DNA of 64,000 nucleotides from an uncultured Bacillota bacterium (GCA_963804645.1 CAWDRG010000022.1:96001-160000), one strand, 5' to 3'. Positions 31,839-55,614 are shown, numbered from the stretch's first letter. Numbers and translations are program-made. Notes: generated by a model from the sequence alone, not told the origin.

Positions 31839-31866
31839 TGGCGGAGGTGGCGCGAATCTAACCTGG
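31839..31866 (-). repeat. Degenerate copy of the tmRNA 3' end (att-like), most distal
   Basis: TGGCGGAGGTGGCGCGAATCTAACCTGG, 22/28 identical to 55264-55291. Confidence 0.7.
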
Positions 31867-31965
31867 GGTCGGCGGCCCCTTCTTCCCGAGCTGCCGGTTT
31901 CGAGGACCGTCTGTCCCTACGATGGTACGCCGATTCGTCGCCCGCCCGTCGCAGCCGAGGCCTGT

Positions 31966-32361
31966 TCAGGGAAGAGCCCGTTTGACATCCGTATGGACAA
32001 AATCCTTGCCCTTGAACAATAGTGGCTCCCCCGTGGCCTTTGCCAGTGCATAAGCGAAGCAGTCGCCAAAGTTCAATTTCGCCGGGTGCCCGCTGCCTCG
32101 GCCAAAATCACGATAGGCGTCACGCGCGATCCGAGCCTGGGCCTCCGTAATCGGGGTAACGATAATCTGTGCCTCCTGCAACAACTCGTCGAAGCCCCGG
32201 CTGGCTACCGGATCCCGACCACCGTCGACGACCACCGCGGCCTCCACGAAACTTACCGCCGACAGGCGTCGGCTTTCCACCACTTGAATCGCTTCCGCAT
32301 ATAGAGCGGCATCGGGTTCGTCCCGAAGGATCGCCAGCAGCGCCGAGGTGTCAATGATCAT
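31966..32361 (-). CDS. vapC: VapC PIN-domain toxin
   Basis: [24 protein letters not shown] and LLFKGKDF motifs. Confidence 0.93.
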
Positions 32362-32612
32362 CGCGGGAGGCCGTGCTCGTCATAAAGCAGTTCCGCGTGA
32401 TCGGCAGATCGATAGGGTTCCTTGAGGTGTTTGGCCGTCCGTTTGCCAATCGCCAGCAATCGGTCAGTAAGACTGTCTTGTTTCGCGCGTCGAACATGCT
32501 CCAGCCGCTCACGTATTGCCTCAGTCACAGCCGCGGTCATGCTCTCACCGGTAAGGGCGGCGAGTCTCTTGGCCAACCGGTGTGCCTCTTCGTTTTTGAT
32601 GTTGAGGCCCAT
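32358..32612 (-). CDS. vapB: VapB antitoxin (Rv0623-like)
   Basis: [27 protein letters not shown] and [13 protein letters not shown] overlap with vapC. Confidence 0.9.
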
Positions 32613-32613
32613 A

Positions 32614-32650
32614 TTCTACCTCTTCTACCTTTCGTTTCTACCATTCTATC
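32614..32650 (-). promoter_or_regulatory. Probable autoregulatory operator (direct repeats)
   Basis: TTCTACC at 32614, 32623 and 32636, plus TTCTATC at 32644, directly upstream of vapB. Confidence 0.55.
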
Positions 32651-32811
32651 CAAGGACAACATGCAGGTCAAGCCGAAAGGTCGCGAGGATGCCCGGAGAG
32701 TGCCTGCCGGGCATAATGGCCATCCTTCTCCCGGGACCACGGCCGTCAATGGCCGCGCGGCGGGCCGTGGGCTTTACCCACACGATTGCCGGAAGACCCA
32801 CCTAATTAATT

Positions 32812-34271
32812 GCCTCTACCGGCTTTCGAGTGGGTACAGGTCCAGCCCTCCGCAGTGAAAGTAGATGGCCGTCTTGAAATTGTCGACGTTCCGGAAGCCG
32901 CGTGCGGTCTTCTTGACCCACTGGATCGTGGCGTTGACGGCCTCGAGCCCGGCATTCGTGATGCGGTGGCGATGGTAGGTCAGCACGTTCGGTAGGTGCC
33001 TGCGGATCAGCCACGCGACCTGCGCCATAGGCTTGAGCCGGCTGTGCGTGGCGCGCCAGAACCAGCGCGCGAAGAACGTCTCCGCGGACCGGCGGTAACT
33101 GTACTCCCAGAAATGTCGGAAGCGCTCCTTGAGTGCCCAGGCGCGTCCCACTTTCAGGTCATCGCCGAGCAAGAGCCGGAAGGTGCGCCGCTGTTCGGGC
33201 TTGAGCTCGCTCGGCCGGCGTAGCCAAAGGTATTTCGTCCCCGTCAACCGACGATCGGAGGAGCGGGACAACTCCCGGGGTTCGGTCCGCCGCACCTTGT
33301 CCACGGCCGTGTGGAGATGCTTCACGACATGGAACTTATCAAACACAATCTTGTCCACCCCGTCGGGCACGTGACTGGTGACCGAGTGTATGTAGGGCTC
33401 CCACATGTCCATCGCGACGGCGGCGATGCTCTCGCGCTGGGCCGGCGTGCAGGTGGGCCAGAAGGCGTCGAGGCTTTCCGCTTTGCGATCCTCGTTGACG
33501 AACAGCACCCGGTGGCGTTGCAGGTCCGCCACCACGGTCAAGTACCGGTGGCCTTTGGTGATTGCCTTCTCGTCCACGCCGACGTACGGGATCGGTTCCG
33601 CTGTCCGGCGCGCCAGCCCGCGCTTCACCGCCCGGCTCTTAATCCCCCACGCTTCATCCCAGGTGATCCGGAGTAGGGCCGCCGCGCCGGTGACCGAGCA
33701 TTCCCGCAGAAAGTCGATCGCCAACCGCTCAAACAACTGCGTGAACTGGCTGCCCGGCTCGGCCCACGGGATGGTGATCTGCTTGATCCCGTGCTGAGCG
33801 CACTGCACCCGCGGGACATCGGCTTCAATCCACGTGCGCAGCTGGAGCGTGTCCAGATGCCGCCACCGCCGCGGACGGCGATCATAGCCCGGCGACGGCG
33901 TCTGACATTCCGGACACGGAAACGGGCCCGGGCCCGCCTCGACTTTCACCGTCACTTGCTCGCCGGGGATATCCACCTCCACCCCGACCACCTTCCACGG
34001 TGGCGTGAGCCCCAGGATCGTAGCGTATAACTCGACATCGCGCACCAGACCAGCCTCCTCACGAAGCGTTCCCGCCCCGCGGGTCAGATTGCGCCTGCCG
34101 ACCATAGTGGCAGGGGTGCACCCGCCCCCGACGGCGGTCAAGAAGCGCGCAGCGCGCCGAAGGCCATGTTCTTGACGGCCGGCGGGGGTAGGTGTCTGGC
34201 TTTGAGCTGGTCGGCAGGCGTTGGTTTCTACTGGTCTACGCTATTTCACCCACACAACTTCCCGAAGAGCC
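32812..34271 (-). mobile_element. ISL3 family insertion sequence
   Basis: 8-bp TSD AATTAATT (32804-32811 and 34272-34279); imperfect terminal IRs G(C/G)CTCT...GTGGGT, 16/24 matching. Confidence 0.9.
32816..34045 (-). CDS. ISL3 transposase
   Basis: CPEC zinc finger, RWRHLD, GVDE, AMDMW.PY, FDKFHV and TNAGLEAVN motifs. Confidence 0.95.
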   Translation of the reverse strand: MRDVELYATILGLTPPWKVVGVEVDIPGEQVTVKVEAGPGPFPCPECQTPSPGYDRRPRRWRHLDTLQLRTWIEADVPRVQCAQHGIKQITIPWAEPGSQFTQLFERLAIDFLRECSVTGAAALLRITWDEAWGIKSRAVKRGLARRTAEPIPYVGVDEKAITKGHRYLTVVADLQRHRVLFVNEDRKAESLDAFWPTCTPAQRESIAAVAMDMWEPYIHSVTSHVPDGVDKIVFDKFHVVKHLHTAVDKVRRTEPRELSRSSDRRLTGTKYLWLRRPSELKPEQRRTFRLLLGDDLKVGRAWALKERFRHFWEYSYRRSAETFFARWFWRATHSRLKPMAQVAWLIRRHLPNVLTYHRHRITNAGLEAVNATIQWVKKTARGFRNVDNFKTAIYFHCGGLDLYPLESR

Positions 34272-34312
34272 AATTAATTAGGTCGTGTTTCTGTTGTTTG
34301 ATGGGTCCCAAT

Positions 34313-35023
34313 CTACGTCTTGGGCACCACGAGCGGTGTAACGAACGCTTCCCGGACCCAGACGTTCGGCCCGGTGGCCAGAACGGACCGGACCACCTGG
34401 GCGACATCATCGGGACGGAGCGCCCAGTCACGGCGCGCCATGTTGTCCGAGAACTCCGTCCGGACCGACCCGGGTTCAACTACGCTTACCTTCACGCCGC
34501 TCTGTCGGACCTCCAGACCCACCGCCTCAGTGAACCCAATCACGCCAAACTTCGAGGCTGAGTAGGCGGCGCTTTCCGCCATTCCCAGGCGGCCCGCTCC
34601 CGAGGCGATGTTGATAATGTGCCCGTGACGCTGCGCGATCATCACCGGCAACGCGGCCCTGGTAAAAAGAAACACCCCGGTCAGGTTGACGTTCATCAGA
34701 CGCCGCCACGCATCGACCGGCATGGTATGGGTCGGTCCATGCCATCCGATCCCCGCGTTGTTAACCACGGCATCTAGCCGGCCTCCCCACTCTTGCGCGT
34801 GGGCGACCGCCGCCGCAGCGGTCGCCTCATCGGCCACGTCGCCGGCAACCCCCGCCGCCCGGTTCTCGCCGATTTCCTGGGCGACCCGGGCGAGATCGGT
34901 CTCCGTCCGCGAGACCAGGATGATCCGGGCTCCCGCAGACGCGAGTTCTATGCTCACCGCGCGCCCGATGCCTCGTCCCGCGCCGGTCACGATGATAACC
35001 TGATCAAGAAGCTCCTGACCCAT
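34313..35023 (-). CDS. Short-chain dehydrogenase/reductase
   Basis: TGAGRGIG, NNAG and YSASK motifs. Confidence 0.93.
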   Translation of the reverse strand: MGQELLDQVIIVTGAGRGIGRAVSIELASAGARIILVSRTETDLARVAQEIGENRAAGVAGDVADEATAAAAVAHAQEWGGRLDAVVNNAGIGWHGPTHTMPVDAWRRLMNVNLTGVFLFTRAALPVMIAQRHGHIINIASGAGRLGMAESAAYSASKFGVIGFTEAVGLEVRQSGVKVSVVEPGSVRTEFSDNMARRDWALRPDDVAQVVRSVLATGPNVWVREAFVTPLVVPKT

Positions 35024-35604
35024 CTCCGCACCTCCCGCCGCGCTCATGCGATATATGGTTCAACCTGCTGTGTCGAGGATCGTACCAGCATGCGCTGTAG
35101 CAACAACTCCCAGCAACAACCGGGCCACCAAGCATATTGCAACGCGTCTCATCATCGTTGATCACGTCTGGAATACGGCCTAGGAACTAAGTTTCGGCTC
35201 TACCGGGTTTCCCGTGGGTAAAAGTCGGCCGCTTCCTAATGGATGGAGGATCGCTCTCAGAAGCATTCGGCCTGCCGGTCATATTAGCCCTTTCCCGAGA
35301 CCAAGGCCGTCAACGGCTGCGCAGCGGGCCACAGGCTTTGCCGTTAAACGCCGCGGAAGCGGAAGAGTTGCTTTGCAAATGACCGGCAGGCGTCTTGTTT
35401 TCGTACCCATGTTCGCCTTTGCCCACACGATTGCCGGACGATCCGAAAAGGAAAGGGAGTCGCGGGTGGCAAGAGGTGCGCTGCCATGCGTAGTGTTTCT
35501 CAAAGCTTCGAGGCGAACCGGAAAGCATGTGTGATGTGATGATGCCCCACGGTGCCAAAAATCGTGCAAACGAGTGAACAACCTTGCAGATAAAACCTGA
35601 GGCG

Positions 35605-35740
35605 TGGTGGACCCGATCTCAAAGAATTCGAACCGTTGCGGAAGTCCCCATCCAGTGGCCCTGCTCGACACCGGTGCAGTACCAGTGTACCAGCAAATCG
35701 CCCCGACGGCGCTTCATCTGCGGCAACTTGGCCTCGCGCG
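35605..35740 (+). pseudogene. Putative detached C-terminal tail of a recombinase, frameshifted near 35655
   Basis: WWTRSQRIRTVAEVPIQ then VALLDTGAVPVYQQIAPTALHLRQLGL; in frame with GSNSLRWW at 39538 once the element ends are joined. Confidence 0.5.
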
Positions 35741-35939
35741 CGCAACTGAGCCCTACCCCTGCCTCGACAGTCGGTCTCGCCGGGTGTGCCACAGTGCGCT
35801 GAAGGACGTCACGTACGAGCGAAGGAGAGAAGAGGCGGTTACGAAGTAGGTCGACGATCGCCCGTTCCATGAACGCCCGACGCACCACCGACCCTCATTC
35901 GTCTTCAGCCCGTCCCCGAAATGGAATGCCGCCGGGCAG

Positions 35940-37442
35940 TTAGCACGAACGGGTATCCGGAGGTACCCGTCCCTGCGCGTTCTGCGCACCTCGCAGACAG
36001 CTCATTAGTGAGTCAAGCGTGCGGAGATGTTCGAGGTCATGAAGCACCAGCCCTATGAGCTGCGTCCGACCCTCCGCAGACAAGCGCCCACTGGTCATTT
36101 CTGTAAACTTGGCGATGAGGTCACCGTCCGTGAACTTCGCGTCGGGAGGGCCCCACATGTCGCCGTATGCAAAGTCCGTCCGGAGCACAAAGCTTCGCTG
36201 CCGGCTTCGAAGCTCGATTTCACATGGCGCCTTTTTGAATACATCCGCAATCGAGGACCCCGTCCACGGACGATAGTGCACTTCCGTCCCAGGTGGATTT
36301 CCTTCTACCCGAACCTTGGCCATCAAACGCTGAATTTCCGGGTCTCGACTCAGTGACAGGTCCACCCACTTGGGGCCTGGAATAATGCCTCTAAGTGCCA
36401 GCGCAACGGCAAATACCCCGCTCATATGGACGGCTTCTTGCGTGTCGGGCGGACCACCCTCGTTCGGGCGGTCCAGTCCGGCAGGCCCGGAAAACCGCAG
36501 CACAATCTCATCGATTTGCGTCACAGAGAGGTGTTCGGCATTTCGGAGCCTGGACAACAGCCACAGGTGTGGTCGATACAGATTGCATACCGGCTCTGGT
36601 TTATACGAGAGCCAGCGCATGCACTCCCACGTGTGCCCGAGATCTTCTAGCAGATACTTGGGTTCAAATCGGTGGGTATTCCACAGCGCCGGTAACCCAT
36701 TGGGATCGTCCAATACGCTTGTATCTCCCGTATACCCGCGGGCCGCGAGGAACGCCGCCGATACGCCGACCTGAGCTGTCCATCCCATTGGAGAATACTT
36801 GACCATGGAAAACGGACGAGTGCGTAACCATTTAAGCAGACTGGGGCCGGGGCTAAGGTATGTTGCCAGTCCCACCGCCTGTGTCATGCGTCCTACGTCA
36901 AGTCGCAACAATCTTCCAACCCCAACGGCCACGCCGAGCGCCCCATATCCATACCCAAACACTGGCCCGATCGCATACCGCGTCTTCAACCCGTCATGTC
37001 CCTCAAGCAAGGGGGCCATCGCCATCGTGAGACGCGCCGCGATCTCGTAACCGATCAAGACAGCCTCGACCACGGATCGACCACTGGCCTTGACGTACTC
37101 CCCCGCCGCGAGAATGCCTGCGAGCACGCTTGGAACATGGTGTGCAACGTTCAAAAATACGGCGTCTCCGTCTAGCGCGTTGGCAAGTTCCGCATTGGCA
37201 AACGCTGCGCGGTCGACAGCGGTTTGAGACGTCATCCCAACCACGGTCGCCTGCGGGGCTCCGGACATATCCTCTACGAATCCTGCAGCCAACCGCCCCT
37301 TTTCCGTCGCCCACCCACCGACCATGCACCCCAGGGTATCGAGAATGAGTCGTTTGACCTCGTAAACCAAGGCGTCCGATAGTCCAAGTTCCTGCTCAAG
37401 TGATCTGGCAGCAATCGTCTGTATTAGGTTCACCATATGCAC
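35940..37442 (-). CDS. MmgE/PrpD family protein
   Basis: LILDTLGC, AAFANAELANALD.D, GYEIAARL, LAARGYTG and YKPEP.C motifs. Confidence 0.9.
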   Translation of the reverse strand: MHMVNLIQTIAARSLEQELGLSDALVYEVKRLILDTLGCMVGGWATEKGRLAAGFVEDMSGAPQATVVGMTSQTAVDRAAFANAELANALDGDAVFLNVAHHVPSVLAGILAAGEYVKASGRSVVEAVLIGYEIAARLTMAMAPLLEGHDGLKTRYAIGPVFGYGYGALGVAVGVGRLLRLDVGRMTQAVGLATYLSPGPSLLKWLRTRPFSMVKYSPMGWTAQVGVSAAFLAARGYTGDTSVLDDPNGLPALWNTHRFEPKYLLEDLGHTWECMRWLSYKPEPVCNLYRPHLWLLSRLRNAEHLSVTQIDEIVLRFSGPAGLDRPNEGGPPDTQEAVHMSGVFAVALALRGIIPGPKWVDLSLSRDPEIQRLMAKVRVEGNPPGTEVHYRPWTGSSIADVFKKAPCEIELRSRQRSFVLRTDFAYGDMWGPPDAKFTDGDLIAKFTEMTSGRLSAEGRTQLIGLVLHDLEHLRTLDSLMSCLRGAQNAQGRVPPDTRSC

Positions 37443-37501
37443 ACCTCGTGGTTCGATAAGCCCGGCGTCACGGGCTCCGACGATAGAGTGCAGATCTTAG
37501 C

Positions 37502-37615
37502 TTATCGCGCACGCGGATCAAGGGAGTCACGAAGTGCGTCCCCGAACGAGGCGACCACGACAACTATCAGGGGTAGAAAGATTCCCGGCATCGTCGAAAT
37601 CCACCGTACGCTATC
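37502..37615 (-). pseudogene. C-terminal fragment of a DppC/OppC-type ABC permease
   Basis: WISTMPGIF...FGDALRDSLDPR with no upstream remainder. Confidence 0.7.
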
Positions 37616-37893
37616 CAAGGAGTTGCGGCCCTGACTAATTGTGACTCCCAGTGAAGGGGTCGATGAAGCGGATTTGCGGGGATGAGCTCGTAGTCGACCG
37701 CGGCGGACGATCAGAAAGGCGACCAGGTTCAGGATCGTCTGCTCGGATAGGATTGGCCGGTCGAGATTCGGATTCTCCCACGTAGTAGACAGCGACGCGA
37801 ACATGCTGCAATGCGCTTGTCCTCCCGGCTGGTCACGGTGCGTCCTCGTCTCGCGGCTAACTCGTCCGCACCTCCACGCTCGTCGACCGGGTT

Positions 37894-38781
37894 CTATGCT
37901 CGCTCTGCGCTCGGGGTACCGGTCCGAGGCCGGCGGACCAGAGCGCCGCCCGCAGGCCACAGCGCGTCGCGCAGTTCGGGGCGCTGCCATTGGGTCAGCA
38001 CCCCAGCCTTGGCGCCATTGCGCCGCTGCGAGTCCACCCGGTCATCCTGGGCGCGCAGGTCGCGGATGCGGTCCAGGCCAATCTCTACGAGAAACAGGCC
38101 CGGCTGCGTGGTCTCAAAGATAATCTCCTCGGGGGCGGCGACCATTGCCAGTCCCCGTTGCTCCCGTCCAAAAAGGTTCTGGGTCGTTGCCACGATGGCC
38201 AGGTTTTCGATTGCGCGCGCCCAGATGAGACAGCGCCACGAGGCCCACAGCTGCTGCTTATCGGTCCCCGCCGGTAGGAAAATCATTTCAGCGCCCCGCA
38301 GCGCCAAGGCGCGGCTGACTTCCGGCATATACACCTCGCTGCACATGGCGAGGCCGATCGTCCCGTACTCGGTATCGAACACCGGGAATTCGTCCGCGGC
38401 GACGTAGTCGAAATCCCAATCGGTCCCGCCACGGTAGATCCAGGGTCCGGGCGGATAGGTCCGCCGGTATCGCCCCGGCGACCCGCCGGTCGGGCGCGCC
38501 AACAAGAGCACGTTGTACGCCCGTCGCGTGCCGTCGTTAAACGGCTCGAGCGTTCCGAACACGACATACACGCCGTAGCGCGCGGCGGCCTCTGTCATCT
38601 GCGGTATCGGATCAAACAGCGTCGGCACCCGCCACGGCCCGGGGTAGGTCTCCGGAAACAAGACAACCTGGGCGCCCTGTTGCGCCGCTGTCTCGATGTG
38701 CCGCACAGCGGCCGCCACGTTGCGTTCGTCGTTCGGTGGCCGGTGCGCTAGTGGCTGTACTATCGCAAGCGTGCAATTCAT
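37894..38781 (-). CDS. Carbon-nitrogen hydrolase family protein
   Basis: LFPETYPG, YRRT (Arg at the usual Lys position), MCSEVYMPE and ARAIEN motifs. Confidence 0.85.
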   Translation of the reverse strand: MNCTLAIVQPLAHRPPNDERNVAAAVRHIETAAQQGAQVVLFPETYPGPWRVPTLFDPIPQMTEAAARYGVYVVFGTLEPFNDGTRRAYNVLLLARPTGGSPGRYRRTYPPGPWIYRGGTDWDFDYVAADEFPVFDTEYGTIGLAMCSEVYMPEVSRALALRGAEMIFLPAGTDKQQLWASWRCLIWARAIENLAIVATTQNLFGREQRGLAMVAAPEEIIFETTQPGLFLVEIGLDRIRDLRAQDDRVDSQRRNGAKAGVLTQWQRPELRDALWPAGGALVRRPRTGTPSAERA

Positions 38782-39555
38782 CCCGTCACTCCACGCAAAG
38801 CAGCTTGGCTACCCAACGCCTTGGCTTCTGTATCTGGGCCGAGCCTGGGGTTCCGGACGAACGTCAGCGGCACCCCCATGTTCCCGCAGTCGATTCCGCA
38901 CCACGCACTGAGTGGTGATGGTCGCGGTCCGCGTACCGGTCGGGGTCGTTGACAGCTCCCCGTGCGGGAGACGCGTCTGGGCCACGGAACGCCGCCCCCA
39001 GCGGTCGTAGGGCACGGGTTCGTCCTGGGGGTGGGGATTCCTCCCGGCCGGACGCCTTCCGTCAGTACGCCGCCTCCAGGGCCCGTGTGGCGGCTCTGGA
39101 GTTCCGCTTGATCGCGCGGACCCACTCGTAGATCGCGTTGCGGAATCTCCACCGAGGCTCATGGAGCTCCATGTCCACCGCCAACCCATGCGTTCGGCGT
39201 CGCGGTCTGCATGGCGGCGCGCTGGATGCTCTGCAGCCCGTATCAAGAAGCGAGGATGGCCGAATGACCGGCGCGGGCATGGACAGAAGTGAAGCGCCAG
39301 TGCTGCCAGTCCGCTGACGCGTTGCGCATGTCCCCGGGGATGGGATCCAGCGCGGAAGCCACCTCCCCAACGCACGGTCATCCCAAGAACCGTGGAAGGC
39401 ACCGGTCGAGGTCTGAGCACGCCGGTTCTATCATGAACCCGTGGGAATGCCGGCCGACACGCTTTCACAGGTCGCGTTGTCCGTCAATATCCTGACGCCC
39501 ATTGGGCACGCCGGGCCAAGACGAAGTGCGGGGAGGCGGTTCGAATTCTTTGCGC

Positions 39556-39583
39556 TGGTGGAGGCGGCGGGAATCGAACCCGC
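39556..39583 (-). repeat. Copy of the tmRNA 3' end (att)
   Basis: 28/28 identical to 55264-55291. Confidence 0.95.
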
Positions 39584-39589: not shown

Positions 39590-39626
39590 TTGACATCATG
39601 ATGCCGATCACGATAGCATCATGATG
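39590..39626 (+). promoter_or_regulatory. Sigma70-type promoter with two palindromic operators; probably leaderless
   Basis: TTGACA (39590)-N18-TAGCAT (39614); CATCATGATG at 39594 and 39617; GTG start at 39626 without an RBS. Confidence 0.7.
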
Positions 39627-39871
39627 TGCGAACGACACTTACGCTAGACGATGACGTTGCGGTCAGGGTCAAGGCCGAGGCCCGAAAGTCAGGCCGTTCT
39701 TTCAAGGAGGTCGTGAACAGTCTCCTCCGTCTCGGGCTGACAAAGAAGCATGAGAGCGGCACGATCGACCGTTTCGTCGTGCGAACCCGGCCACTCGGCC
39801 GCAGACCGGGACTCAACTACGACAAGATCAGTGAACTGATCGAGCATGTCGAAGGACCTCTCCATCGATGA
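39626..39871 (+). CDS. vapB: RHH antitoxin (VapB-like)
   Basis: MRTTLTLDDDV...GRSFKEVVN.LLR.GL. Confidence 0.88.
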   Translation: MRTTLTLDDDVAVRVKAEARKSGRSFKEVVNSLLRLGLTKKHESGTIDRFVVRTRPLGRRPGLNYDKISELIEHVEGPLHR

Positions 39872-40332: not shown

Positions 40333-40360
40333 TGGTGGAGGCGGCGGGAATCGAACCCGC
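40333..40360 (-). repeat. Copy of the tmRNA 3' end (att)
   Basis: 28/28 identical to 55264-55291. Confidence 0.95.
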
Positions 40361-43152: not shown

Positions 43153-43173
43153 ATGTCATTGGTGTCGGAGGAA

Positions 43174-45193: not shown

Positions 45194-45218
45194 ATAAGTC
45201 AGTTCGAACTCGTTGCGT

Positions 45219-47261: not shown

Positions 47262-48641
47262 ATGCGACGCCGGATGACTGCACTCGTGCTGCTCAGCGCG
47301 TTTGCGTTTGTCGTGCAGGGATGGGGCGGACTCGCTCCGATTCGGGCCGCCGGCCAGCAAACCGTCCACCTCACCGCCTGGACGATCGGGCCGGATGAAC
47401 CGTCCTACTACCGCAAGGACAACCTCCTGAGCGCCGCTGACGCGCTCAACAAGCAGCTGGCTGCCGAAGGCTCGGGGATCCGGGTCACTCTGGATGCGAC
47501 CTTCGCCACCGGAGGCGGACAGACGTGGGGCGCGTACAAACAGCGGTTCGTGCTGGCTGCGCAGTCGGGGAAGGCTCCCGACATTGTGGCGACCGGGAAC
47601 GAGGACATCGCGGCCTGGGCTGCTGCTGGCTACGTGATCCCCTTGGACACGTATGTGAAGCAGTACAAGCAGTTCGCGGACGTCATCCCATCACTCTGGA
47701 ATGCCACCAAGTTCGATGGGAGAATCTACGCGATTCCGCAAGATGTCGAGGCGAGACCCCTGTACTTTAGCATGCCGTTCCTGGCGAAGCTCGGATGGTC
47801 GCAGGACAAGATCGCGGGTCTGCCCAAGGCGATTGAGGCCGGCCAGTTCACGCTCACCGACATGTTGCAGACGGCCAAGGAGGCGCAGGACAAGGGGCTC
47901 GTGTTGAAGGGATACGGGTGGTGGATCCGTCCGATCAACGGGCCGGATTATTACATGTACTACGAAGCGTTCGGCGGCAAGATGACGGATGCAAGTGGCA
48001 AGTTGCTGCTCGACACCAAGGCGCTCCGTGGTGACTATTCGTTCTTCCACGACGCCGTGTTCACATATAGCGTGACGCCCAAGGATATCATCGGGACCGA
48101 TTGGAACAGCTGGCACGGGGCCGTAGTCGGAAAGCAGGTGCTGTTCACGCAGTGCGGGACATGGTGCTGGGCCCAGTGGATCCAGCAGTACAAAATGCCG
48201 GCCGATGAGGTGTGGAAGACGTACGGGTTCGCGCTCGTGCCCTCGGGCACCAAGGGCGGACGTCCCGTGACCCTGAGTCATCCGATCGTGTACATGATCA
48301 GCAAGTCGTCGCCACACGCGGACCTCGCGGCGCGCCTCCTGGCGCTCGCCACGACCCCGCAACTTAACGCCCGACACGCCGTGACGAGCGGCCATCTCGC
48401 GGTGCTCACTGATGAGGCACAGGTACCGGCGTACGCGCAGGACACGTTCGCGAAAGATACGATCTACATGCTGCGGTACACGACGTTCTTGCCGAACGAC
48501 GCACTCTTCGGCACCTATGACCAGGCAATCTGGGAGGGCCTCTCGGCCGTGGTTTCCGGCAAGATGACGGCGGACCAGGCCGTACAGACAGTCACGCAAC
48601 AGTTGCAGACGAACCTGAGCGACCACGTCGTTATCCGGTGA
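47262..48641 (+). CDS. Carbohydrate ABC transporter solute-binding protein
   Basis: Signal peptide; SGKAPDI, G...PLD and YAIPQD motifs (family 1 SBP). Confidence 0.9.
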   Translation: MRRRMTALVLLSAFAFVVQGWGGLAPIRAAGQQTVHLTAWTIGPDEPSYYRKDNLLSAADALNKQLAAEGSGIRVTLDATFATGGGQTWGAYKQRFVLAAQSGKAPDIVATGNEDIAAWAAAGYVIPLDTYVKQYKQFADVIPSLWNATKFDGRIYAIPQDVEARPLYFSMPFLAKLGWSQDKIAGLPKAIEAGQFTLTDMLQTAKEAQDKGLVLKGYGWWIRPINGPDYYMYYEAFGGKMTDASGKLLLDTKALRGDYSFFHDAVFTYSVTPKDIIGTDWNSWHGAVVGKQVLFTQCGTWCWAQWIQQYKMPADEVWKTYGFALVPSGTKGGRPVTLSHPIVYMISKSSPHADLAARLLALATTPQLNARHAVTSGHLAVLTDEAQVPAYAQDTFAKDTIYMLRYTTFLPNDALFGTYDQAIWEGLSAVVSGKMTADQAVQTVTQQLQTNLSDHVVIR

Positions 48642-49615
48642 AGCCGTCCCCGGAGAGCCTCTCCGGGAGGCCGGTCACCACGCAGGGTGCCGCCCGGCGT
48701 CGATGGACAGCGGGCGGCTATCCTACGTTGTTTCTGGCCCCCGCCGGGCTTGTCGTGCTGGCGCTGTTTCTCGCGCCAGCATTGCTGACGATCGTCATCA
48801 GCCTGACGAACTTGAGCGTGGCGACCGGGCTGACCCATTACCGTTGGATCGGGCTGGCCAACTACTCGCAGATCGCCCACAGCCCGTGGTTGAGCCTCAT
48901 TCTCTGGAACACCCTGATCTATGTGGCCTGCACCCTCGTTCTGTTCAACGTCGGGCTCGCGCTGGTGCTCGCGCTGCTGACCGCGCATCTGTCGGAGCGA
49001 GCGGCCGGAGTGTTCCGCGTCCTGTGGATGCTGCCGCGCATCACGCCCTCGGTCGTGTACGCGCTGATGTGGCGGTGGGCCGCCGCCCAGGCTCCGTACG
49101 GCACGCTGAGCCAACTCCTAGGGCTTTTCGGCATCCCCGGAAGGAACTGGATGAACGCGCACCCGTGGGCGTTCGTAATCGGCTTGAACGGGCTTGTCGG
49201 TGCGTCGTTCGGCATGATCATCTTCTCGTCCGCGATCACGGCCATCCCGCGCGATCAGTACCTTGCTGCCCAGGTCGATGGAGCATCGGCCTGGCAGCAG
49301 GTGTGGCGGATCACCTTGCCGCGGCTGCGATGGCCGGTTTTGTTCGTAACAGCGTACCAGACGCTATCGCTGTTGACGTCGTTCGAGTACATCCTGCTGA
49401 CAACCAACGGGGGCCCCGGGTTCTACACGACCGAGGTGTGGTCGCTGTACGCGTTCCATCTGGCGCTGTCCAACTACTTCGGGAACACGCAGTTCGGGCT
49501 CGGCGCCGCCCTCGCCGCGATTCTCGTGGTCCTCGGCGTCGGTGCCTCGGTCTGCTACCTCCGGCTCTTCCGGTTCAGCGAGCTCGTGGCGCCGCCACGG
49601 ATCGAGGTCAACTGA
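48638..49615 (+). CDS. Carbohydrate ABC permease
   Basis: WIGLANY, EAA-like loop AAQVDGAS.WQ..W.ITLP, LTTNGGPG. Confidence 0.92.
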   Translation: MKPSPESLSGRPVTTQGAARRRWTAGGYPTLFLAPAGLVVLALFLAPALLTIVISLTNLSVATGLTHYRWIGLANYSQIAHSPWLSLILWNTLIYVACTLVLFNVGLALVLALLTAHLSERAAGVFRVLWMLPRITPSVVYALMWRWAAAQAPYGTLSQLLGLFGIPGRNWMNAHPWAFVIGLNGLVGASFGMIIFSSAITAIPRDQYLAAQVDGASAWQQVWRITLPRLRWPVLFVTAYQTLSLLTSFEYILLTTNGGPGFYTTEVWSLYAFHLALSNYFGNTQFGLGAALAAILVVLGVGASVCYLRLFRFSELVAPPRIEVN

Positions 49616-49616
49616 G

Positions 49617-50444
49617 ATGCCGGTGGCGGCCCTCCGGTGGCGCTGGACGATGGGGGCCGCCCTGCTGGTACTGTCGGCCCCCATCGTCCTAACCTACGGA
49701 TGGTTGGTGATGGCGTCGTTCAGCGTCAGTACAACGGGCATTGTTCCGCACGGGTTCACGTGGGACAACTGGCGGTTCTTGTGGAGCACGCTGCCGAACG
49801 AGGCGAACGCGTGGGTAGCGGCCACAAACTCGCTGCTCTTTGCCGTGTCGCTGGCGCTCGCGGAGGTGCTCATCGGCTCGATGGCGGCGTACGCGCTCTC
49901 CCGCCTGAACTTCCGCGGACGCGGGGCGTTTCTTGCCTCCACCATGGTTCTGCATTCGTTCCCCAGCGTGACGCTCCTCATCGCGATCTTCCTGATTCTC
50001 CGCGTTCTCGGGCTCTACGACCAGCTCGGCGGCGTCATCCTGGTGAAGCTGGCCCTCGACCTGCCCCTCGGAATCTGGATCATGAAGGGGTTTTACGACG
50101 CGGTTCCCTGGGACATCGAGATGGCCGCGATGATGGACGGGTACTCTCGGCTACAGATCTGGTGGCGGGTAATGCTTCCGCTCATCTCGCCGGGGCTGTT
50201 CGCGTTCGGCATCTTCGCCTTCCTGAGCGGATGGAACGAGTTTCTGCTGCCGTACGTGCTGCTGCCGAGTCAGAACTCTCAAACGCTGTCGGTGTTGATG
50301 GCCAGCCTGTCCGGGGAGGAGCAGTACGCGGACTACGGGTTGGTGACGGCGCTCAGCGTATTCTACATCCTGCCCGCGGTCGTGTTCTTTGCGCTGACGC
50401 AGAAGTACCTTCTGCGAATTTTCACGGGGGGAGTGAAGGGGTAG
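49617..50444 (+). CDS. Carbohydrate ABC permease
   Basis: AAYALSR, EMAAMMDG, WNEF and GGVKG motifs. Confidence 0.92.
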   Translation: MPVAALRWRWTMGAALLVLSAPIVLTYGWLVMASFSVSTTGIVPHGFTWDNWRFLWSTLPNEANAWVAATNSLLFAVSLALAEVLIGSMAAYALSRLNFRGRGAFLASTMVLHSFPSVTLLIAIFLILRVLGLYDQLGGVILVKLALDLPLGIWIMKGFYDAVPWDIEMAAMMDGYSRLQIWWRVMLPLISPGLFAFGIFAFLSGWNEFLLPYVLLPSQNSQTLSVLMASLSGEEQYADYGLVTALSVFYILPAVVFFALTQKYLLRIFTGGVKG

Positions 50445-50445
50445 C

Positions 50446-51519
50446 GTGGAATTGACGTTGGAGCACGTCTCCAAAGAGTTCGGCCGCGTCAGAGCGGTCG
50501 ATGACGTCTCCCTGACAGTCCGCGACGGTGAGCTCGTGGCGTTGCTGGGCCCTTCAGGCTGTGGCAAGTCAACCACGCTCTTCCTCGTGGCCGGGCTGTA
50601 CCGGCCGTCGGCGGGACGTATTTTGTTCGGACAGCGCGTGGTCAACGACGTGAGTCCACAATCCCGCGGCGTGGGCTTGGTCTTCCAGAGCTACGCACTG
50701 TACCCGCACTTAACCACCTTCGAGAATATCGCGTTCCCGCTGCGCGTGAAGCGGGCGTCCCGCGCGGAGGTGACCCGACGGGTGCACGAGGTCGCCGAGC
50801 TGACCGGCATCACCGAGTGCCTGCCGAGACCGCCGGCCCAGTTGTCTGGCGGACAACAGCAGCGCGTGGCACTTTGCCGGGCGCTCGTGAAGGCGCCCGC
50901 GATCCTGCTGCTGGACGAACCGCTCTCCAACCTCGACGCTCGGCTCCGCGAAGCCACGCGGGCGGAGATCAAACGGCTGCAACGGGAACTGGGGATCACG
51001 ACGCTTTTCGTTTCCCACGACCAGGCCGAGGCGCTAGGGATCGCCGATCGGGTCGGGATCATGGACCACGGTAAACTCGTGGTGCTGATGACACCGATGG
51101 ATTTGTATCAACGGCCGCCGTCGCGCTTCGTCGCGGAGTTTATCGGCACGCCGCCGATGAACTTCATGCCGGTTCAAGTGGCGGAGAATGGTATCCTGTT
51201 CGATGGCGCGTCGCTTCGACAGCTGCCGCGCCCCATCGCTCAGGGCGCGTACATGCTCGGCGTGCGGCCCGAGCATCTCCACGTAGCGGCCGACGGCACT
51301 CTACCCGCCCGGATCGTGCTCGTCGAAACCCTGGGCCGAGACCTGCTGATCCACGCGAACTGCGGGGGCGTGCGCCTGCGGATCCTCGCCGACCCGGAGA
51401 CGCACGTCGGGCCCGACGATCACGTCCGCCTACGGCTCGACTGGGATCGCGCGCACCTGTTCGAAGCGGACAGCGGACGGGTCGTGCCGTTCGCCGGGAA
51501 AGAAGGGAGCGTGCTATGA
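50446..51519 (+). CDS. ABC ATP-binding protein (MalK-like)
   Basis: GPSGCGKS, VFQSYALYPH, LSGGQQQR and DEPLSNLDA motifs. Confidence 0.95.
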   Translation: MELTLEHVSKEFGRVRAVDDVSLTVRDGELVALLGPSGCGKSTTLFLVAGLYRPSAGRILFGQRVVNDVSPQSRGVGLVFQSYALYPHLTTFENIAFPLRVKRASRAEVTRRVHEVAELTGITECLPRPPAQLSGGQQQRVALCRALVKAPAILLLDEPLSNLDARLREATRAEIKRLQRELGITTLFVSHDQAEALGIADRVGIMDHGKLVVLMTPMDLYQRPPSRFVAEFIGTPPMNFMPVQVAENGILFDGASLRQLPRPIAQGAYMLGVRPEHLHVAADGTLPARIVLVETLGRDLLIHANCGGVRLRILADPETHVGPDDHVRLRLDWDRAHLFEADSGRVVPFAGKEGSVL

Positions 51520-52865
51520 CCGCACGGCGCAACGCGGTGGTCCTGCTCGTCGACAGCCTACGCTACGACTTCGTTGGATTCAACGGCAACGCGCGGATTC
51601 GAACACCGTGCCTCGATGCGTTCGCGCGGCGGGCGGCCGTCTTCGATCAGGCCGTGGTGGGTTCCTACCCGTGTCTGCCGTGCCGGCGGGAGATGTGGAC
51701 GGGCCGCTACGAGTTCCCGTTTCGGGGCTGGGGACCGCTTGAGCGCAGCGACGTGATCTTCTCGGAGTTGGCCCGCGGCGCAGGGTATACGACGATGTTT
51801 ATCACCGACAACTATCTGCTCTGCTACCAAGATGGAGACTACCAGCGCGGCTTCTGCTGGGATCTCATCCGGGGACAGGAGCACGACGCCTGGGTGACCG
51901 ATCCGACGCTGCCGATCGTGCTGCCGTGCCGGCCGGAGAAGCTCCGCGACCCCTACGGCCGAGTCGCCCAGTACTTGCGGAACACCGCTTCGTGGCGCAC
52001 CGAGGAGGACCATTTCGGCCCTCAGGTCATGCGCCGTGCGTCCGAATGGCTTGAGCGCAACCGGACGCTCGACGGATTTCTCCTGTGGGTGGATTGCTTC
52101 GACCCGCACGAACCCTGGGACCCGCCCTATCAGTACCACCAACTCTACAACCCGGGCTATCAGGGCGAGCGTGTTTTCTACCCAGCGTACGGCCGTGCTG
52201 ATTCGCTGTCGGATGAGGAGCTGGCCGAGTGTCGAGCGCTCTACGCGGGTGAAGTCACGATGGTCGACCGATGGATCGGGCGCGTGCTGGAGAAACTCGA
52301 GGACCTCGGCCTGCTGCGGAACACCCTGGTGGCGATCATCACCGATCACGGCTATATGTTCGGCGAGCACGGGCTCCTGGGGAAACCCTGGGCCGCACTC
52401 GCCGAGTCGAACCTCTATCGTGAAGTGGCGCACCTCCCGTGGGTCATGTTTCATCCCGAGGGGGCGGGCGCCGGTCGCCGCTTCGACGCGCTTGTGCAGC
52501 CGGTCGATCTATTCGCGACCCTCCTCGCGTGGTTGGATGTGCCGGTCCCCGGTCCCGTCCATTCGCGCAGCCTGCTGCCGCTGTTGGAGGGCCGTGCCCC
52601 GCGCATTCGTGACCACGCGTTCTGGGGGCGCTTCGGAGAGGCGATACACATTACCGATGGGAGCTGGGAGGCCTTCTTCTGGCCGGAGGGGGCACCGTAC
52701 CGGGACCGGCTCTATCACCTCGCCGTCGATCCGGCCGAGACCAGCGACCTCTCGGACTCGCATCCCGATGCGCTTCGGCGCTTGCGCGACAGCGCCCAGG
52801 CGTGGCTACGTGAGATCGGCGGGCCGGACCTCCGACGGCGAGCGTTTGTGCGTGATCATGTGTAG
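51516..52865 (+). CDS. Cys-type (formylglycine-dependent) sulfatase
   Basis: VDSLRYD, CLPCR (CxPxR), DPHEPWDPP and TDHG motifs. Confidence 0.9.
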   Translation: MTARRNAVVLLVDSLRYDFVGFNGNARIRTPCLDAFARRAAVFDQAVVGSYPCLPCRREMWTGRYEFPFRGWGPLERSDVIFSELARGAGYTTMFITDNYLLCYQDGDYQRGFCWDLIRGQEHDAWVTDPTLPIVLPCRPEKLRDPYGRVAQYLRNTASWRTEEDHFGPQVMRRASEWLERNRTLDGFLLWVDCFDPHEPWDPPYQYHQLYNPGYQGERVFYPAYGRADSLSDEELAECRALYAGEVTMVDRWIGRVLEKLEDLGLLRNTLVAIITDHGYMFGEHGLLGKPWAALAESNLYREVAHLPWVMFHPEGAGAGRRFDALVQPVDLFATLLAWLDVPVPGPVHSRSLLPLLEGRAPRIRDHAFWGRFGEAIHITDGSWEAFFWPEGAPYRDRLYHLAVDPAETSDLSDSHPDALRRLRDSAQAWLREIGGPDLRRRAFVRDHV

Positions 52866-52936
52866 AGGAGACCCGACGACCATTGGGACGCCGTTCTCGA
52901 TGTGCGGCGCGGGCCCTGCGATCGGTGAGGGCGGCG

Positions 52937-53842
52937 ATGTCGAACCAGGATCTATCTGAAGTCCACGCCCACCTGTGCGCCGCCGCGGACGCTCTGTTGA
53001 AGGCGGCCGTGCGCATGGATTGGGGCGCGCGTAGGATCGAGGACGACCCGGTTATCGAGGCGACGATCACGACGCTCCGGGCCATCGTTGGCATGCATCA
53101 CGCTGATCCTCGCGCCTTCGAACAGCTCGCGATCCTGCTGCACAATGTCGGACGCCTCAACGCAGCGGCCCGTCTGTACGCCGAAGTCAACCGCCTTGAT
53201 CCGCCGTATCCTCCCGACGACCGGCAACGTCAGGCCATCGAGGATCTCTGCCCGCGTCTGCTGACCACCCGGCCCGAGTGGTTCAGGTTATCCGATTGCG
53301 CGGCGATTCACCATCCGGTGGATCCGGTCATCGGGTTCCATTTCTTTTGGGAGGATGACTGGGACTATCCCGACGATGACGAACCGTGCGACCACGAGGT
53401 CGTCTGGGTTCGGTACCGGCCGCCGGCGCTTGTGCCCGTCGAAGTAATGACGTATTTTCATGGACGCATCCTGACCGGGTCCATGTCCGCTACGCCGGCG
53501 CGTCCGGCGGTCTGCGTGCAGTGGGGCAAGCACGGCTCGCTGCCCGCCGGATGGGAGCACGCGGATGAGCTGCGCGCGGCGTTGCGTTGCGACTTCGACG
53601 CATCCCAGCAGGGAGGACGCGTGCCGGATCATCCGCGAAAGCGCGCCTGGCCGCGTCAGTTCCCCGGTGGATGGCCGGAGTATACGCGGTTCGACCGCGA
53701 GGTCGACCCGCTTCCGTTAATTCGAACGCGGAAGTGGTGTGCCAGCGCTCGCTGGGCGAACGCGGCGCTGCACGATCTCTTTGTCCCTTACAATTTCCAT
53801 GCAAAGCGAGAGTGGCCAGACGACGGCCTGGTCAACCTCTGA
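52937..53842 (+). CDS. Hypothetical protein (TPR-like N-terminus, acidic/His-rich C-terminal domain)
   Basis: FWEDDWDYPDDDEPCDHE, YFHG and WGKHG motifs; last gene of the ABC/sulfatase operon. Confidence 0.6.
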   Translation: MSNQDLSEVHAHLCAAADALLKAAVRMDWGARRIEDDPVIEATITTLRAIVGMHHADPRAFEQLAILLHNVGRLNAAARLYAEVNRLDPPYPPDDRQRQAIEDLCPRLLTTRPEWFRLSDCAAIHHPVDPVIGFHFFWEDDWDYPDDDEPCDHEVVWVRYRPPALVPVEVMTYFHGRILTGSMSATPARPAVCVQWGKHGSLPAGWEHADELRAALRCDFDASQQGGRVPDHPRKRAWPRQFPGGWPEYTRFDREVDPLPLIRTRKWCASARWANAALHDLFVPYNFHAKREWPDDGLVNL

Positions 53843-53929
53843 TCCCACCCGAAGGGCTCGCTAGCGGAGCGGGCAGCGGTGTGATGAGCGCAATCTCTTT
53901 CCGTGAGCCGCGATGATTCCGCGACACCC

Positions 53930-54142
53930 GAACCCGCAGATAGGCATACTCCCGAATGTCCCATCCATACATCTTGTCGTACAGGGTGTAGAACCGAGAT
54001 TGTGGCTTCTTCTCACCTTGGCGTGGAGCTGCCGCTGAAGGGTCCGAATCCGCTCCGGGATTCCTAAGCTCCTCGCCAATCCTCCATCATTTCGCTCCGT
54101 TGAACGGCATCTCAGAACTGAGGTCTCTTCCCTCCGCCGGCT
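53930..54142 (-). pseudogene. Group II intron remnant (RNA segment plus frameshifted start of the RT/maturase ORF)
   Basis: GCCGGCGGAGGGAAGAGACCTCAGTTC, then PERIRTLQRQLHAK and in another frame KPQSRFYTLYDKMY.WDI..YAY.RVR. Confidence 0.75.
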
Positions 54143-54170
54143 TTGTGGAGGCGGCGGGAATCGAACCCGC
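54143..54170 (-). repeat. Copy of the tmRNA 3' end (att)
   Basis: 27/28 identical to 55264-55291. Confidence 0.93.
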
Positions 54171-54229
54171 ACCCCCAAGCTTCGTCCCAAGACACTTGGA
54201 AATCCCAAGAATAGACCGATCCACATGGT

Positions 54230-54268
54230 ATACATTTTTGTATCAAACTAACTACATTATTGTATAAT
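54230..54268 (+). promoter_or_regulatory. Promoter with tandem TACA-N4-TGTA operators
   Basis: ATACATTTTTGTAT (54230) and TACATTATTGTA (54253), the second overlapping TATAAT (54263); ATG 6 nt downstream. Confidence 0.65.
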
Positions 54269-54274
54269 ATGCCC

Positions 54275-54598
54275 ATGGACGATAAACTCTTCGGTTCCTC
54301 AATCAGGACCGATACGCTAGTCACTATCGGTCGCCTTCAACGGACTTACTCGTCTGAGATTGCCCGTCTGCTTGGCCGGCGAGTTGTCGAGATTCAGCGG
54401 GCCGTGGCGTCCCTCGAACTCGCAGGGGTGATCGTAACCAACCGCCTGGGCAACACACGGATTGTGGAACTCAATCCGACCTTTCCCGTAAGAGATGAAT
54501 TGTACGCGTTGCTATTACGCATGAGCGAGTTACCGATATACGTAGATCGTTGGTCAAAGATCCGGCGTCGCCCACGCGCCATGGGCAAGCCGTCATGA
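54275..54598 (+). CDS. Winged-HTH protein (putative antitoxin/regulator)
   Basis: LFGS.IRT, Y.SEIARLLG..V..IQRAV.SLE.AGVI and G.TR...LNP.FP...EL motifs. Confidence 0.75.
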   Translation: MDDKLFGSSIRTDTLVTIGRLQRTYSSEIARLLGRRVVEIQRAVASLELAGVIVTNRLGNTRIVELNPTFPVRDELYALLLRMSELPIYVDRWSKIRRRPRAMGKPS

Positions 54599-55161
54599 AA
54601 TTCTCCGGTATGTCGCTCGTCGAGGTGGCCGCACTCGTCGCTGCACATTTGAAGACTTATGGAATTGAGGTTGTCGTTGTCGGCGGCAGCGCCATCACGT
54701 GTCATGTTCCTGCGGTGTATACCTCGATGGATATTGACTTTGCCGTCACGTCGGGCATCGATCGACGCAGGATCACCCGTGCGTTGCACGAACTCGGCTT
54801 TGAGTTACGCGGGCGAGTCTTTGTCCATCCTGACACCATGTATCCACTGGACTTTGTGGCAGATCGACCATATGTCGAGCAGGACCCCATCTATGACTTT
54901 GCGGCGATTCATACGCCCACAGGTACCGTCCAAGTCCTCCGCCTCGAAGACGCCATCGCCGATCGCATCGCCGCATTCCTTCACTGGAGTGATTCCGAAT
55001 CGCTCGAGGTGGCGGTACGCGCTGCAATCGCTGCACGAGATCGGCTGACGTGGCCACGCGTGAGCGCTGCGTTACGAAGACTGGATACAACGTCGCCAGA
55101 CACTGAGCAGCGCATGACCTTAGCACACGTGCGATTGAGGCGCGCGATCGCGGACGCATAG
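54595..55161 (+). CDS. Minimal nucleotidyltransferase-like protein
   Basis: VVVGGSA...Y.S.DIDF (GS...DxD motif); ATGA-coupled to the HTH gene. Confidence 0.75.
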   Translation: MKFSGMSLVEVAALVAAHLKTYGIEVVVVGGSAITCHVPAVYTSMDIDFAVTSGIDRRRITRALHELGFELRGRVFVHPDTMYPLDFVADRPYVEQDPIYDFAAIHTPTGTVQVLRLEDAIADRIAAFLHWSDSESLEVAVRAAIAARDRLTWPRVSAALRRLDTTSPDTEQRMTLAHVRLRRAIADA

Positions 55162-55263
55162 CAACAGGCCCAACGATCGCTCTCGTCGAACGTGGCGCGC
55201 GTCGAAATACCTCGTCTAAGAGAGCAACACCCCGATTCGGGTCACGCTGGCGCTTATCGGGCA

Positions 55264-55614
55264 TGGTGGAGGCGGCGGGAATCGAACCCGCGTCCTGAAG
55301 CCGCGAGGGCAGGGCATCTACGCGCGTATCCTGCGGTTTGGTGTCGCGGGACCGGACTCCCGCAGGCCGGATTCCAATCCCGCCAGCTCTCTAGGTCTTA
55401 GCCGGCCCTCCCGGAGCGAGGAGAACCGGAGCATCCGGCTGGTGACGCTCGATCCCCGCCCGCCGGCGCTGCGGGGGGAGCGACGCTACTTAATTAAGCA
55501 GCGTATGCGAGCTGATTGTCGGCGTGTATGCGCCGTCCAGTTGTTTAACGAGGACCTGGACCACCTCGGCGCGCCACCCTGCTTCTGCCTGCTCAGTCGA
55601 AGCCGTTCGCCCCC
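55264..55614 (-). ncRNA. ssrA: tmRNA
   Basis: 5' GGGGGCG pairs with 3' CGCCUCC-ACCA (G3.U wobble); T arm GCGGG-UUCGAUU-CCCGC; tag ORF 55523-55494 encodes ADNQLAYAA*; smpB lies nearby. Confidence 0.97.

Follow-up and report, generated by a model that had tools for sequence, protein, structure and literature searches.

A probable tandem array of decayed integrative segments, three of them bare toxin–antitoxin operons, behind the tmRNA gene of an uncultured Bacillota bacterium

The window analysed here is a 64,000-nt stretch (GCA_963804645.1, CAWDRG010000022.1:96001-160000; positions are counted from its first letter) from an uncultured Bacillota bacterium found in peat metagenomes, in which six displaced copies of the last 28 nt of the transfer-messenger RNA (tmRNA) gene ssrA delimit six segments downstream of that gene. 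We read this stretch of about 23 kb as a tandem, decayed array of segments resembling cis-mobilizable elements (CIMEs), in which toxin–antitoxin (TA) operons have persisted, and we give this reading a probability of about 60%. Such an array is a known kind of footprint, and would be unusual mainly in that three of its segments amount to a bare TA pair.

The target gene is complete. A single tmRNA gene was found on the minus strand by ARAGORN and Rfam (152.7 bits, model positions 1–374 of 374), encoding the tag ADNQLAYAA, and its last 28 nt correspond to the T arm, the 3′ acceptor strand and the CCA. A search with this 28-mer, allowing up to three mismatches, returned ssrA itself and five further sites, at 39556 (0 mismatches), 40333 (0), 43013 (2), 45219 (2) and 54143 (1), all on the plus strand, and none of 100 shuffled sequences gave a match. 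The sixth copy, at 31839, has six mismatches; since only 23 sites with at most six mismatches exist on both strands of the whole 5.3-Mb assembly, seven of them forming the ssrA array and the other 16 being tRNA-type T arms, it is not a chance match. At each copy the match to ssrA ends after 28–29 nt, and the identity block common to all copies extends from the 5′ strand of the T stem through to the CCA, the position of the crossover itself being one that we infer. The locus thus shows what an Islander-type test looks for in a target gene, i.e., a full ssrA with displaced 3′ fragments in direct orientation downstream. A first-pass annotation, made from the sequence of the window, had already listed these six same-orientation copies, and our counts agree with it (28/28, 28/28, 26/28, 27/28 once an insertion sequence (IS) is removed, 27/28 and 22/28), including for the copy at 45219, described there as split by an IS; in a metagenome contig that lacks the insertion, we find this copy restored to 27/28. 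It had also called the most distal copy the most decayed, which is true of the copy at 31839; the decay is not a monotonic gradient, however, as two perfect copies lie 15–16 kb from ssrA.

55264..55614, minus strand: ssrA (tmRNA gene); its last 28 nt (55264-55291) are the predicted attB identity block
54143..54170, plus strand: ssrA-end copy, 27/28; first 2 nt overwritten by the group II intron fragment at its left
45219..45246, plus strand: ssrA-end copy split by IS256-B; 26/28 as assembled, 27/28 when restored (45219-45245 plus base 46631)
43013..43040, plus strand: ssrA-end copy, 26/28 (28-mer search)
40333..40360, plus strand: ssrA-end copy, 28/28 (28-mer search; bridged by a contig of run X1)
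39556..39583, plus strand: ssrA-end copy, 28/28 (28-mer search)
31839..31866, plus strand: decayed ssrA-end copy, 22/28 (six mismatches; genome-wide count of sites)

The copies cut the array into segments S6 (31867-39555), S5 (39584-40332), S4 (40361-43012), S3 (43041-45218), S2 (45247-54142) and S1 (54171-55263), counted here from the distal end towards ssrA. Each has an ssrA-end repeat as its putative attachment (att) site on both sides and is devoid of recombination and transfer genes, which is how CIMEs are defined. Their G+C content ranges from 0.55 to 0.64, against 0.70 and 0.72 in the flanks. The five TA-like pairs that the first-pass annotation had placed near copies were all recognised, the S1 pair on weak scores (E 8e-8 and 8e-5, PADLOC), and they stand 25–260 nt from the nearest copy: about 100 nt in S6, 43 and 34 nt in S5, about 260 nt in S4, 25 nt in S3 and 89 nt in S1. 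In S5 (749 bp), S3 (about 801 bp once the IS is removed) and S1 (1093 bp), the TA pair is the only cargo.

54260..55161, plus strand: S1, winged helix-turn-helix (wHTH) protein and AbiEii-like nucleotidyltransferase; sole cargo
47262..53842, plus strand: S2, sugar-type ABC importer (substrate-binding protein, two permeases, ATPase), sulfatase and uncharacterised 319-aa open reading frame (ORF); the segment also holds an IS256-family element
44559..45193, plus strand: S3, AbrB-type VapB and VapC (tRNA-fMet endonuclease type); sole cargo besides an IS256-family element
42058..42760, minus strand: S4, HigBA-like TA pair; helix-turn-helix antitoxin 42058-42411 and Gp49/HigB-like toxin 42404 to about 42760
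40442..41938, both strands: S4, DinB-family gene (40442-41014, minus) and PEP-CTERM protein (41198-41938, plus)
39626..40299, plus strand: S5, ribbon-helix-helix antitoxin and VapC; sole content
34313..38781, minus strand: S6, short-chain dehydrogenase/reductase (SDR), MmgE/PrpD-family gene, OppC-like permease fragment (37502-37990) and CN-hydrolase; the segment also holds an ISL3-family element
31966..32612, minus strand: S6, VapC (PIN) and Rv0623-like VapB (domain search)

The meaning of the repeat comes from relatives, which we compared across 94 genomes of the order (the counts include the unpublished G078, on which no specific claim depends, and genes in relatives were called with an ORF filter and Pfam). 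The 28-mer is conserved throughout (72 of the 94 genomes with at most two mismatches); on a single contig, 10 of the 93 other genomes carry two or three copies on the same strand and none carries more than three, the present stack being the largest seen. At five of the eight ssrA loci that were fetched (G019, G015, G006, G016 and G046), a tyrosine integrase (PF00589) lies directly against ssrA, and an Islander-type search, which also looks for an integrase beside the regenerated target gene, would find one at these five loci and none in the window or on its contig. In G015, G019 and G046 the integrase frame enters the 28-mer, which encodes its last 11 codons, and ends in VEAAGIEPAS; in G006 and G016 the integrase copies are broken and stop short of it. 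The simplest case is G015, where a 4.3-kb island with a 427-aa integrase and a metal ATPase sits between two perfect copies; in G016, a TA pair (MNT/HEPN) is found directly beside the integrase. A search for related loci with the G015 integrase as query retrieved its own record alone. Moreover, the region of the integrase 3′ end is common to nine ssrA-side junctions, and 11 distal junctions, taken from relatives and metagenomes, have in common some 90 nt of conserved arm immediately inward of the distal copy. Integrases abutting ssrA and junction arms shared between relatives show the 28-mer to be the ordinary attB/att identity block belonging to one defined family of integrases, whose arms are likewise defined. 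Loss of the enzyme is seen in further relatives: in G003 (where an integrase remnant of only about 100 nt lies between kdpD and ssrA), G012 (twice) and G013, no integrase ORF was found, and the last 35–100 nt of the integrase are kept beside ssrA. The same state probably holds for G002 and G008, where the contig breaks off 2.7 kb and less than 100 nt beyond ssrA, respectively. This comparison of relatives at ssrA, proposed by the first-pass annotation, revealed different islands between the same repeats, and no orthologous segment was seen gained or lost.

The ssrA island of G046 (C1:2883025-2897303) is 14 kb long; its integrase lies at the end facing ssrA, and its cargo is a full type I-E CRISPR-Cas gene set (Cas3, Cse1, Cse2, Cas7, Cas5, Cas6e and Cas1). 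In G086, ssrA-end copies stand 257–290 bp apart (at 151, 441 and 698, and at 8279 and 8569) with no gene between them, each preceded by its own terminator-like hairpin; these “empty” units are about the size of an attP.

In the window, PF00589 matched none of the 91 ORFs between 28.3 and 55.3 kb, and neither the 11 PF00589 matches nor the four Resolvase-domain matches of the genome lie on its contig, in line with the earlier observation that no intact integrase can be recognised in the 23 kb. The genome-wide search for an ssrA-type integrase, likewise suggested beforehand, found the family as fragments only (open frames of 122, 83 and 155 aa) in this 96.8%-complete assembly. What the array does hold are marks of decay, listed here together with the remaining arm and the truncated gene at its border.

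53927..54142, minus strand: group II intron fragment, 216 nt, 80% identical to two intact copies on contigs C15 and C10; cut exactly at copy 54143
46632..46670, plus strand: distal arm of S2 (“type b”), resembling the distal flanks of the G013 and G046 islands
45237..46621, plus strand: IS256-family element B (IS256-B), transposase 45349-46593; 9-bp target duplication TCGAAACCG; absent from a contig of run X3
43166..44542, minus strand: IS256-family element A, transposase 43204-44526; 8-bp target duplication CGGAGGAA; absent from contigs of runs X2 and X5
42978..43012, plus strand: integrase 3′ remnant (P′ arm), about 35 nt at the left of copy 43013; aligns with the ssrA junctions of nine relatives
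32812..34277, minus strand: ISL3-family element, also present on C8 and C2 as copies of 100% identity
30914..31813, minus strand: glgX, truncated to roughly profile positions 1–214 of 688; immediately beyond the last copy

The homology to the group II intron stops exactly at copy 54143, and the fragment supplies the first two, mismatched bases of that copy; G003, with its short integrase remnant beside ssrA, has an endpoint of this kind too. When IS256-B is removed, as in the X3 contig, copy 45219 is restored and is followed by an arm like those of the G013 and G046 islands. In addition to the OppC-like fragment in S6, glgX, cut after about a third of its length, counts among the gene remnants. 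Altogether, arms survive unevenly in the window, with the “type b” arm in S2, the integrase-side remnant in S4, a weak arm in S1, and none in S5, S3 and S6. The intact group II introns of this genome number at least two, are identical, and encode a reverse transcriptase/maturase ORF of 435 aa (C15 at about 191.4 kb and C10 at about 189.8 kb).

Population variants were studied in Logan contigs of public runs (depth about 3–6), in which rare variants are dropped. Besides the two polymorphic IS, X1 and X3 have contigs in which 42007 is followed, after five additional letters, by 46986, 4978 bp being skipped (about 2.2 kb if the two IS are not counted). Two TA pairs and two repeats are absent from this variant (it has neither the HigBA pair, copy 43013, S3 nor copy 45219), and neither breakpoint falls at a repeat; the variant represents either a co-existing strain with a deletion or an older arrangement. 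No joint between two 28-mers was found in the population contigs, which are silent on excision given that they drop rare variants. X1 also has a joint from 39506 to 39580. Of the two explanations put forward by the first-pass annotation, a pile of eroded islands at an ssrA hotspot is therefore well supported, both by the intact and broken integrases of relatives between the same repeats and, within the window, by the integrase remnant, the truncated intron, the IS elements, the gene fragments and the off-repeat breakpoints of the variant.

A further motif accompanies some of the copies.

39503..39555, plus strand: copy of the native ssrA trailer, motif GGTTCGAATTCTTTGCG, left of copy 39556
45197..45218, plus strand: second, diverged trailer copy, 14/17 motif positions, following the VapC stop codon and preceding copy 45219

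Taken with copy 39556, the first of these stretches has 82% identity over 85 nt to the ssrA 3′ end of G009 and the sequence directly following it, and the motif is also present, decayed, left of copy 31839. In G015, G016 and G012, GGTTCGAATTCTTTGCG is found outside the distal copy, and in G009, G055 and G037 directly behind single ssrA genes, with ordinary chromosomal genes beyond. Scanning metagenomes for the motif joined to the 28-mer yielded 22 loci, 13 of which run into ssrA bodies of several types and nine of which are island junctions (flanks were sorted as ssrA bodies partly by eye); an exact 46-nt query (trailer plus 28-mer) had no match among metagenome contigs. Because the motif directly follows single ssrA genes of many body types, we regard it as the native trailer of ssrA. 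For the same reason we dropped two other interpretations of GGTTCGAATTC, one in which it was the core site of an integrase, with the T arm repeated in inverted orientation, and one in which a conserved ORF ended there. As for the trailer in general, some 17–50 nt behind ssrA are kept across lineages with quite different tmRNA bodies, and a similar motif occurs outside a tRNA-Ala island in G016 (position 6362 of the fetched locus).

The same habit is observed at tRNA genes of this genome: at least one downstream copy of the gene’s own 3′ end (last 24 nt, at most three mismatches, within 60 kb) accompanies 18 of its 52 tRNA/tmRNA genes, 17 of them besides ssrA, although these 18 include a pair of adjacent tRNA-Arg genes whose matches are in part to one another. 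Array sites include C6:87595 (tRNA-Thr), C9:482398 (tRNA-Lys), C15:176605 (tRNA-Met) and C19:54595 (tRNA-Arg), and there is a tRNA-Ser array too. At tRNA-Thr, five copies bound segments of 1.2–3.6 kb, one of them (1.17 kb) being a single aldo-keto reductase gene. None of the 147 ORFs in 12 fetched tRNA-type arrays is a tyrosine integrase (PF00589), and several arrays hold TA pairs at the tRNA end. The segment of 859 bp behind tRNA-Arg(CCT) contains only an uncharacterised ORF and a PIN protein, and a 4-kb tRNA-Met segment two TA pairs and a broken IS.

The distribution of the cargo in relatives was examined by a DNA search with 14.5 kb of the array, in which only three candidates per genome were scored, so that missing hits mean little, and by separate searches for S3 and S2. 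For the S3 VapBC, none of the 93 other genomes of the order gave a DNA match. The S2 operon has 89% nucleotide identity to a stretch of the congeneric G002, there 1 kb behind tRNA-Asn; as no tRNA-Asn end copy occurs within 20 kb, the homologue cannot be called an island there. It is also 74% identical to stretches in G001 and G003, away from tRNA genes. Homologues of the S5 operon (66–69% identity) are found in many genomes, and in all eight that were fetched the homology runs from the conserved −35 box/operator to the toxin stop codon or earlier, with unrelated flanks devoid of the 28-mer. Likewise, none of seven fetched homologues of the S6 VapBC has a tRNA gene or tRNA-end motif within about 1.2 kb. 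In G031, tRNA-Glu is followed after 22 nt by a homologue of the S4 HigBA, and a further 1.44 kb on by a decayed copy of the tRNA end. The S1 pair has 67% nucleotide identity to a pair of G001 located just outside the distal copy and inverted. A 14/15-nt match to the ssrA body before a TA promoter in G005 was dropped because its gapped alignment was no better than those of shuffles.

Some neighbouring features concern ssrA and the flank of the array. The smpB gene lies at 60349-60858, 4.7 kb upstream of ssrA and separated from it by an amidase and lutABC-like genes; it is much nearer ssrA in several relatives. A 5′–3′ exonuclease gene and an S1-type TA pair are adjacent in G001 and 34 kb apart here (19500-20567 and 54231-55053), both inverted relative to ssrA. 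Finally, the region from 20.6 to 31.8 kb also has a lowered G+C content (0.646), with no recognisable ssrA-end copy.

According to the reading that we favour, at least six integrative-element segments would have been laid down successively at an attachment site in the 3′ end of ssrA. The 28-nt block carried by each element would restore the split gene, and each integration would leave one displaced copy behind. Deletion, IS insertion and the hit by a group II intron would since have removed the integrases, leaving att-flanked, CIME-like segments without recombination genes, and the array would now be immobile unless a helper integrase arrived. The over-representation of TA operons among the survivors may be due to counter-selection of their loss, and also to the frequent location of TA pairs at island ends or next to an integrase. 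In the same way, the order of events and the shrinkage of three segments to a bare TA operon are what the layout suggests.

Several observations fit this history poorly. Random erosion does not easily yield a segment such as S5, a 749-bp TA operon with spacers of 6 nt (its promoter/operator begins 6 nt past copy 39556) and 34 nt at its two ends, no arm, and 28/28 repeats on both sides, all the more so as these perfect repeats are farther from ssrA than three imperfect ones and as there is no host-level selection for keeping a displaced 28-mer. S3 and S1 are equally or nearly as bare, and the compactness of S3 is not caused by its IS, given that an IS-free allele exists. Moreover, the native trailer is present two or three times in the array (at the left of 39556, 45219 and 31839), a pattern that the simple serial integration of circles carrying only the 28-nt block does not produce. 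Lastly, since relatives revealed no orthologous segment gained or lost at the repeats, the history of serial integration is read from the anatomy of the locus.

These difficulties lead to another explanation, which we consider possible, if doubtful, namely that S5, S3 and S1, and perhaps other single-gene segments at tRNA genes, never had an integrase here and are minimal, att-flanked selfish units. Such a unit would consist of a TA module and a tmRNA-end site, travel by accretion with a neighbouring integrase-bearing island or through its action, and stay after the helper has left because the TA pair punishes loss. The compactness of S5 between perfect repeats would fit, as would the S3 VapBC, which is without DNA match in the other genomes and yet ends with its own diverged ssrA trailer, as if lifted from behind the ssrA of another lineage. 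Similar bare segments at tRNA-Arg(CCT), tRNA-Met and tRNA-Thr point the same way, and so do the HigBA homologue between tRNA-Glu and its decayed end copy in G031, the S2 cargo found behind ssrA here and behind tRNA-Asn in G002, and the gene-less units of G086; in the available text of one study, such movement is proposed for integrase-less ssrA islands of Dehalococcoides (PMC3146451). Nevertheless, S5, S3, S4 and S6 are without the arm of about 90 nt that is common to all 11 aligned distal junctions of integrase type, so that a lambda-like integrase would have no arm sites there. The fetched homologues of S5 (8/8) and of the S6 VapBC (7/7) have no tDNA ends nearby, which indicates that these TA operons also move, or persist, without them. 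In addition, the G001 homologue of the S1 pair is outside the array and inverted, and the assembly contains the integrase family in no intact form. It is possible for the three TA-only segments that small, integrase-less units bounded by tmRNA ends are moved by an integrase supplied in trans, the weaker idea behind the integron-like label of the first-pass annotation. A history of accretion would account for the trailers, if a segment behind one ssrA had been lifted together with an integrase island and inserted at a new ssrA, the helper being now gone.

A broader version, which we think unlikely, would make bare TA operons and some single genes bounded by tRNA- or tmRNA-end copies a class of minimal mobile units, each made of an addiction module and a core att site. 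These would arrive with integrase islands (by accretion or in trans), remain after the helper and build cassette-like arrays behind many tRNA genes, the trailer copies being scars of composite transfer.

The second explanation of the first-pass annotation, an integron-like cassette array, did not withstand closer study. Chromosomal integrons hold many short units separated by one recurring site, and their TA cassettes are thought to stabilise the array, a general look that the present locus shares, with its short units, its single repeated site and its TA pairs. A true integron-like platform would require a resident recombinase capturing promoterless cassettes through folded, attC-like tmRNA-end sites, and this we judge highly improbable. 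There is no IntI (the best TIGR02249 match, on another contig, scores 37 bits against a cut-off of 265) and no recombinase on the contig; nor is there an attI or attC, the repeats being direct copies of a gene end instead of imperfect palindromes, and shuffled sequences fold as well as the six sites with their flanks (z between −1.45 and +1.73). Furthermore, the segments have no common orientation, reach 7.5 kb and carry their own promoters, that of S5 (−35/−10 with operator) being conserved in eight homologues. Equally hard to credit is an assembly artefact, in which repeats of several metagenome strains would have been chained into one contig: the assembly comprises 22 contigs with an estimated contamination of 4.2%, and strain variants do occur in the same peat samples, but copies 40333, 43013 and 45219 are spanned, with unchanged neighbours, by contigs assembled independently from other runs, the 28-nt repeat is shorter than the words of such assemblers, and three identical 1.47-kb IS copies were resolved inside contigs.

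With respect to known systems, the tandem, decayed array favoured here has its closest counterpart in the ssrA genomic islands of Dehalococcoides. As far as the accessible part of that study goes (McMurdie et al. 2011, PMC3146451), these are tandem islands behind a single tmRNA gene, each bounded by ssrA or by a direct repeat of its 3′ end; about half have no integration module and were suggested to be cis-mobilizable, and the 3′ end of the integrase gene overlaps attL. The tandem layout, the integrase-less segments and the CRISPR cargo (here in the relative G046) are common to both. In contrast, the same source describes for Dehalococcoides a module of six genes with DsiB, a large serine recombinase, and a repeat of 20 bp, whereas relatives of the present organism use PF00589 tyrosine integrases and a 28-nt repeat over the whole T arm, the contig has no Resolvase-domain gene, and segments go down to 0.75 kb, several being TA-only. 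The CIME concept itself, with accretion and mobilisation at tDNA or gene 3′ ends (as cited in the consulted text of PMC3146451), covers functional-looking att flanks, missing recombination and transfer genes and tandem association with integrase-bearing elements, the latter seen here in relatives. Unlike CIMEs, the present segments have no helper in their genome, the smallest are without conserved arms, and mobility would be a proposal at this locus. In the tycheposons of Prochlorococcus, to judge from the excerpt available (bioRxiv 10.1101/2020.12.28.424599), successive integrations at one tRNA/tmRNA gene push older elements outward, and the island is strewn with incomplete tRNA copies and pieces of integrase genes, as is the case here; phylum, element family and cargo are different, and TA-only segments are not described in that excerpt. 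Finally, in Photorhabdus, the available portion of a report (PMC13617665) presents a bare ParE/RelE TA operon between Tn3 res-I sites, without mobility genes, and a related genome with a single site and no TA operon. This resembles our bare TA operons between two copies of a recombination site, except that the sites are transposon res sites and not a tmRNA end. A limited literature search found no prior description of TA-only, att-flanked segments at a tmRNA gene.

The locus offers a clear, datable example of a tmRNA gene that would have collected and then fossilised mobile DNA in an uncultured soil lineage, and it defines, with the help of relatives, the integrase family probably responsible and its att arms. 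If TA operons are indeed what remains of island decay, this bears on the clustering of chromosomal TA operons near tRNA genes. Should it turn out that the TA-only segments can be mobilised on their own, no smaller att-dependent hitch-hikers would be known, and TA modules, which move in ways that are still poorly understood, could spread horizontally by this route.

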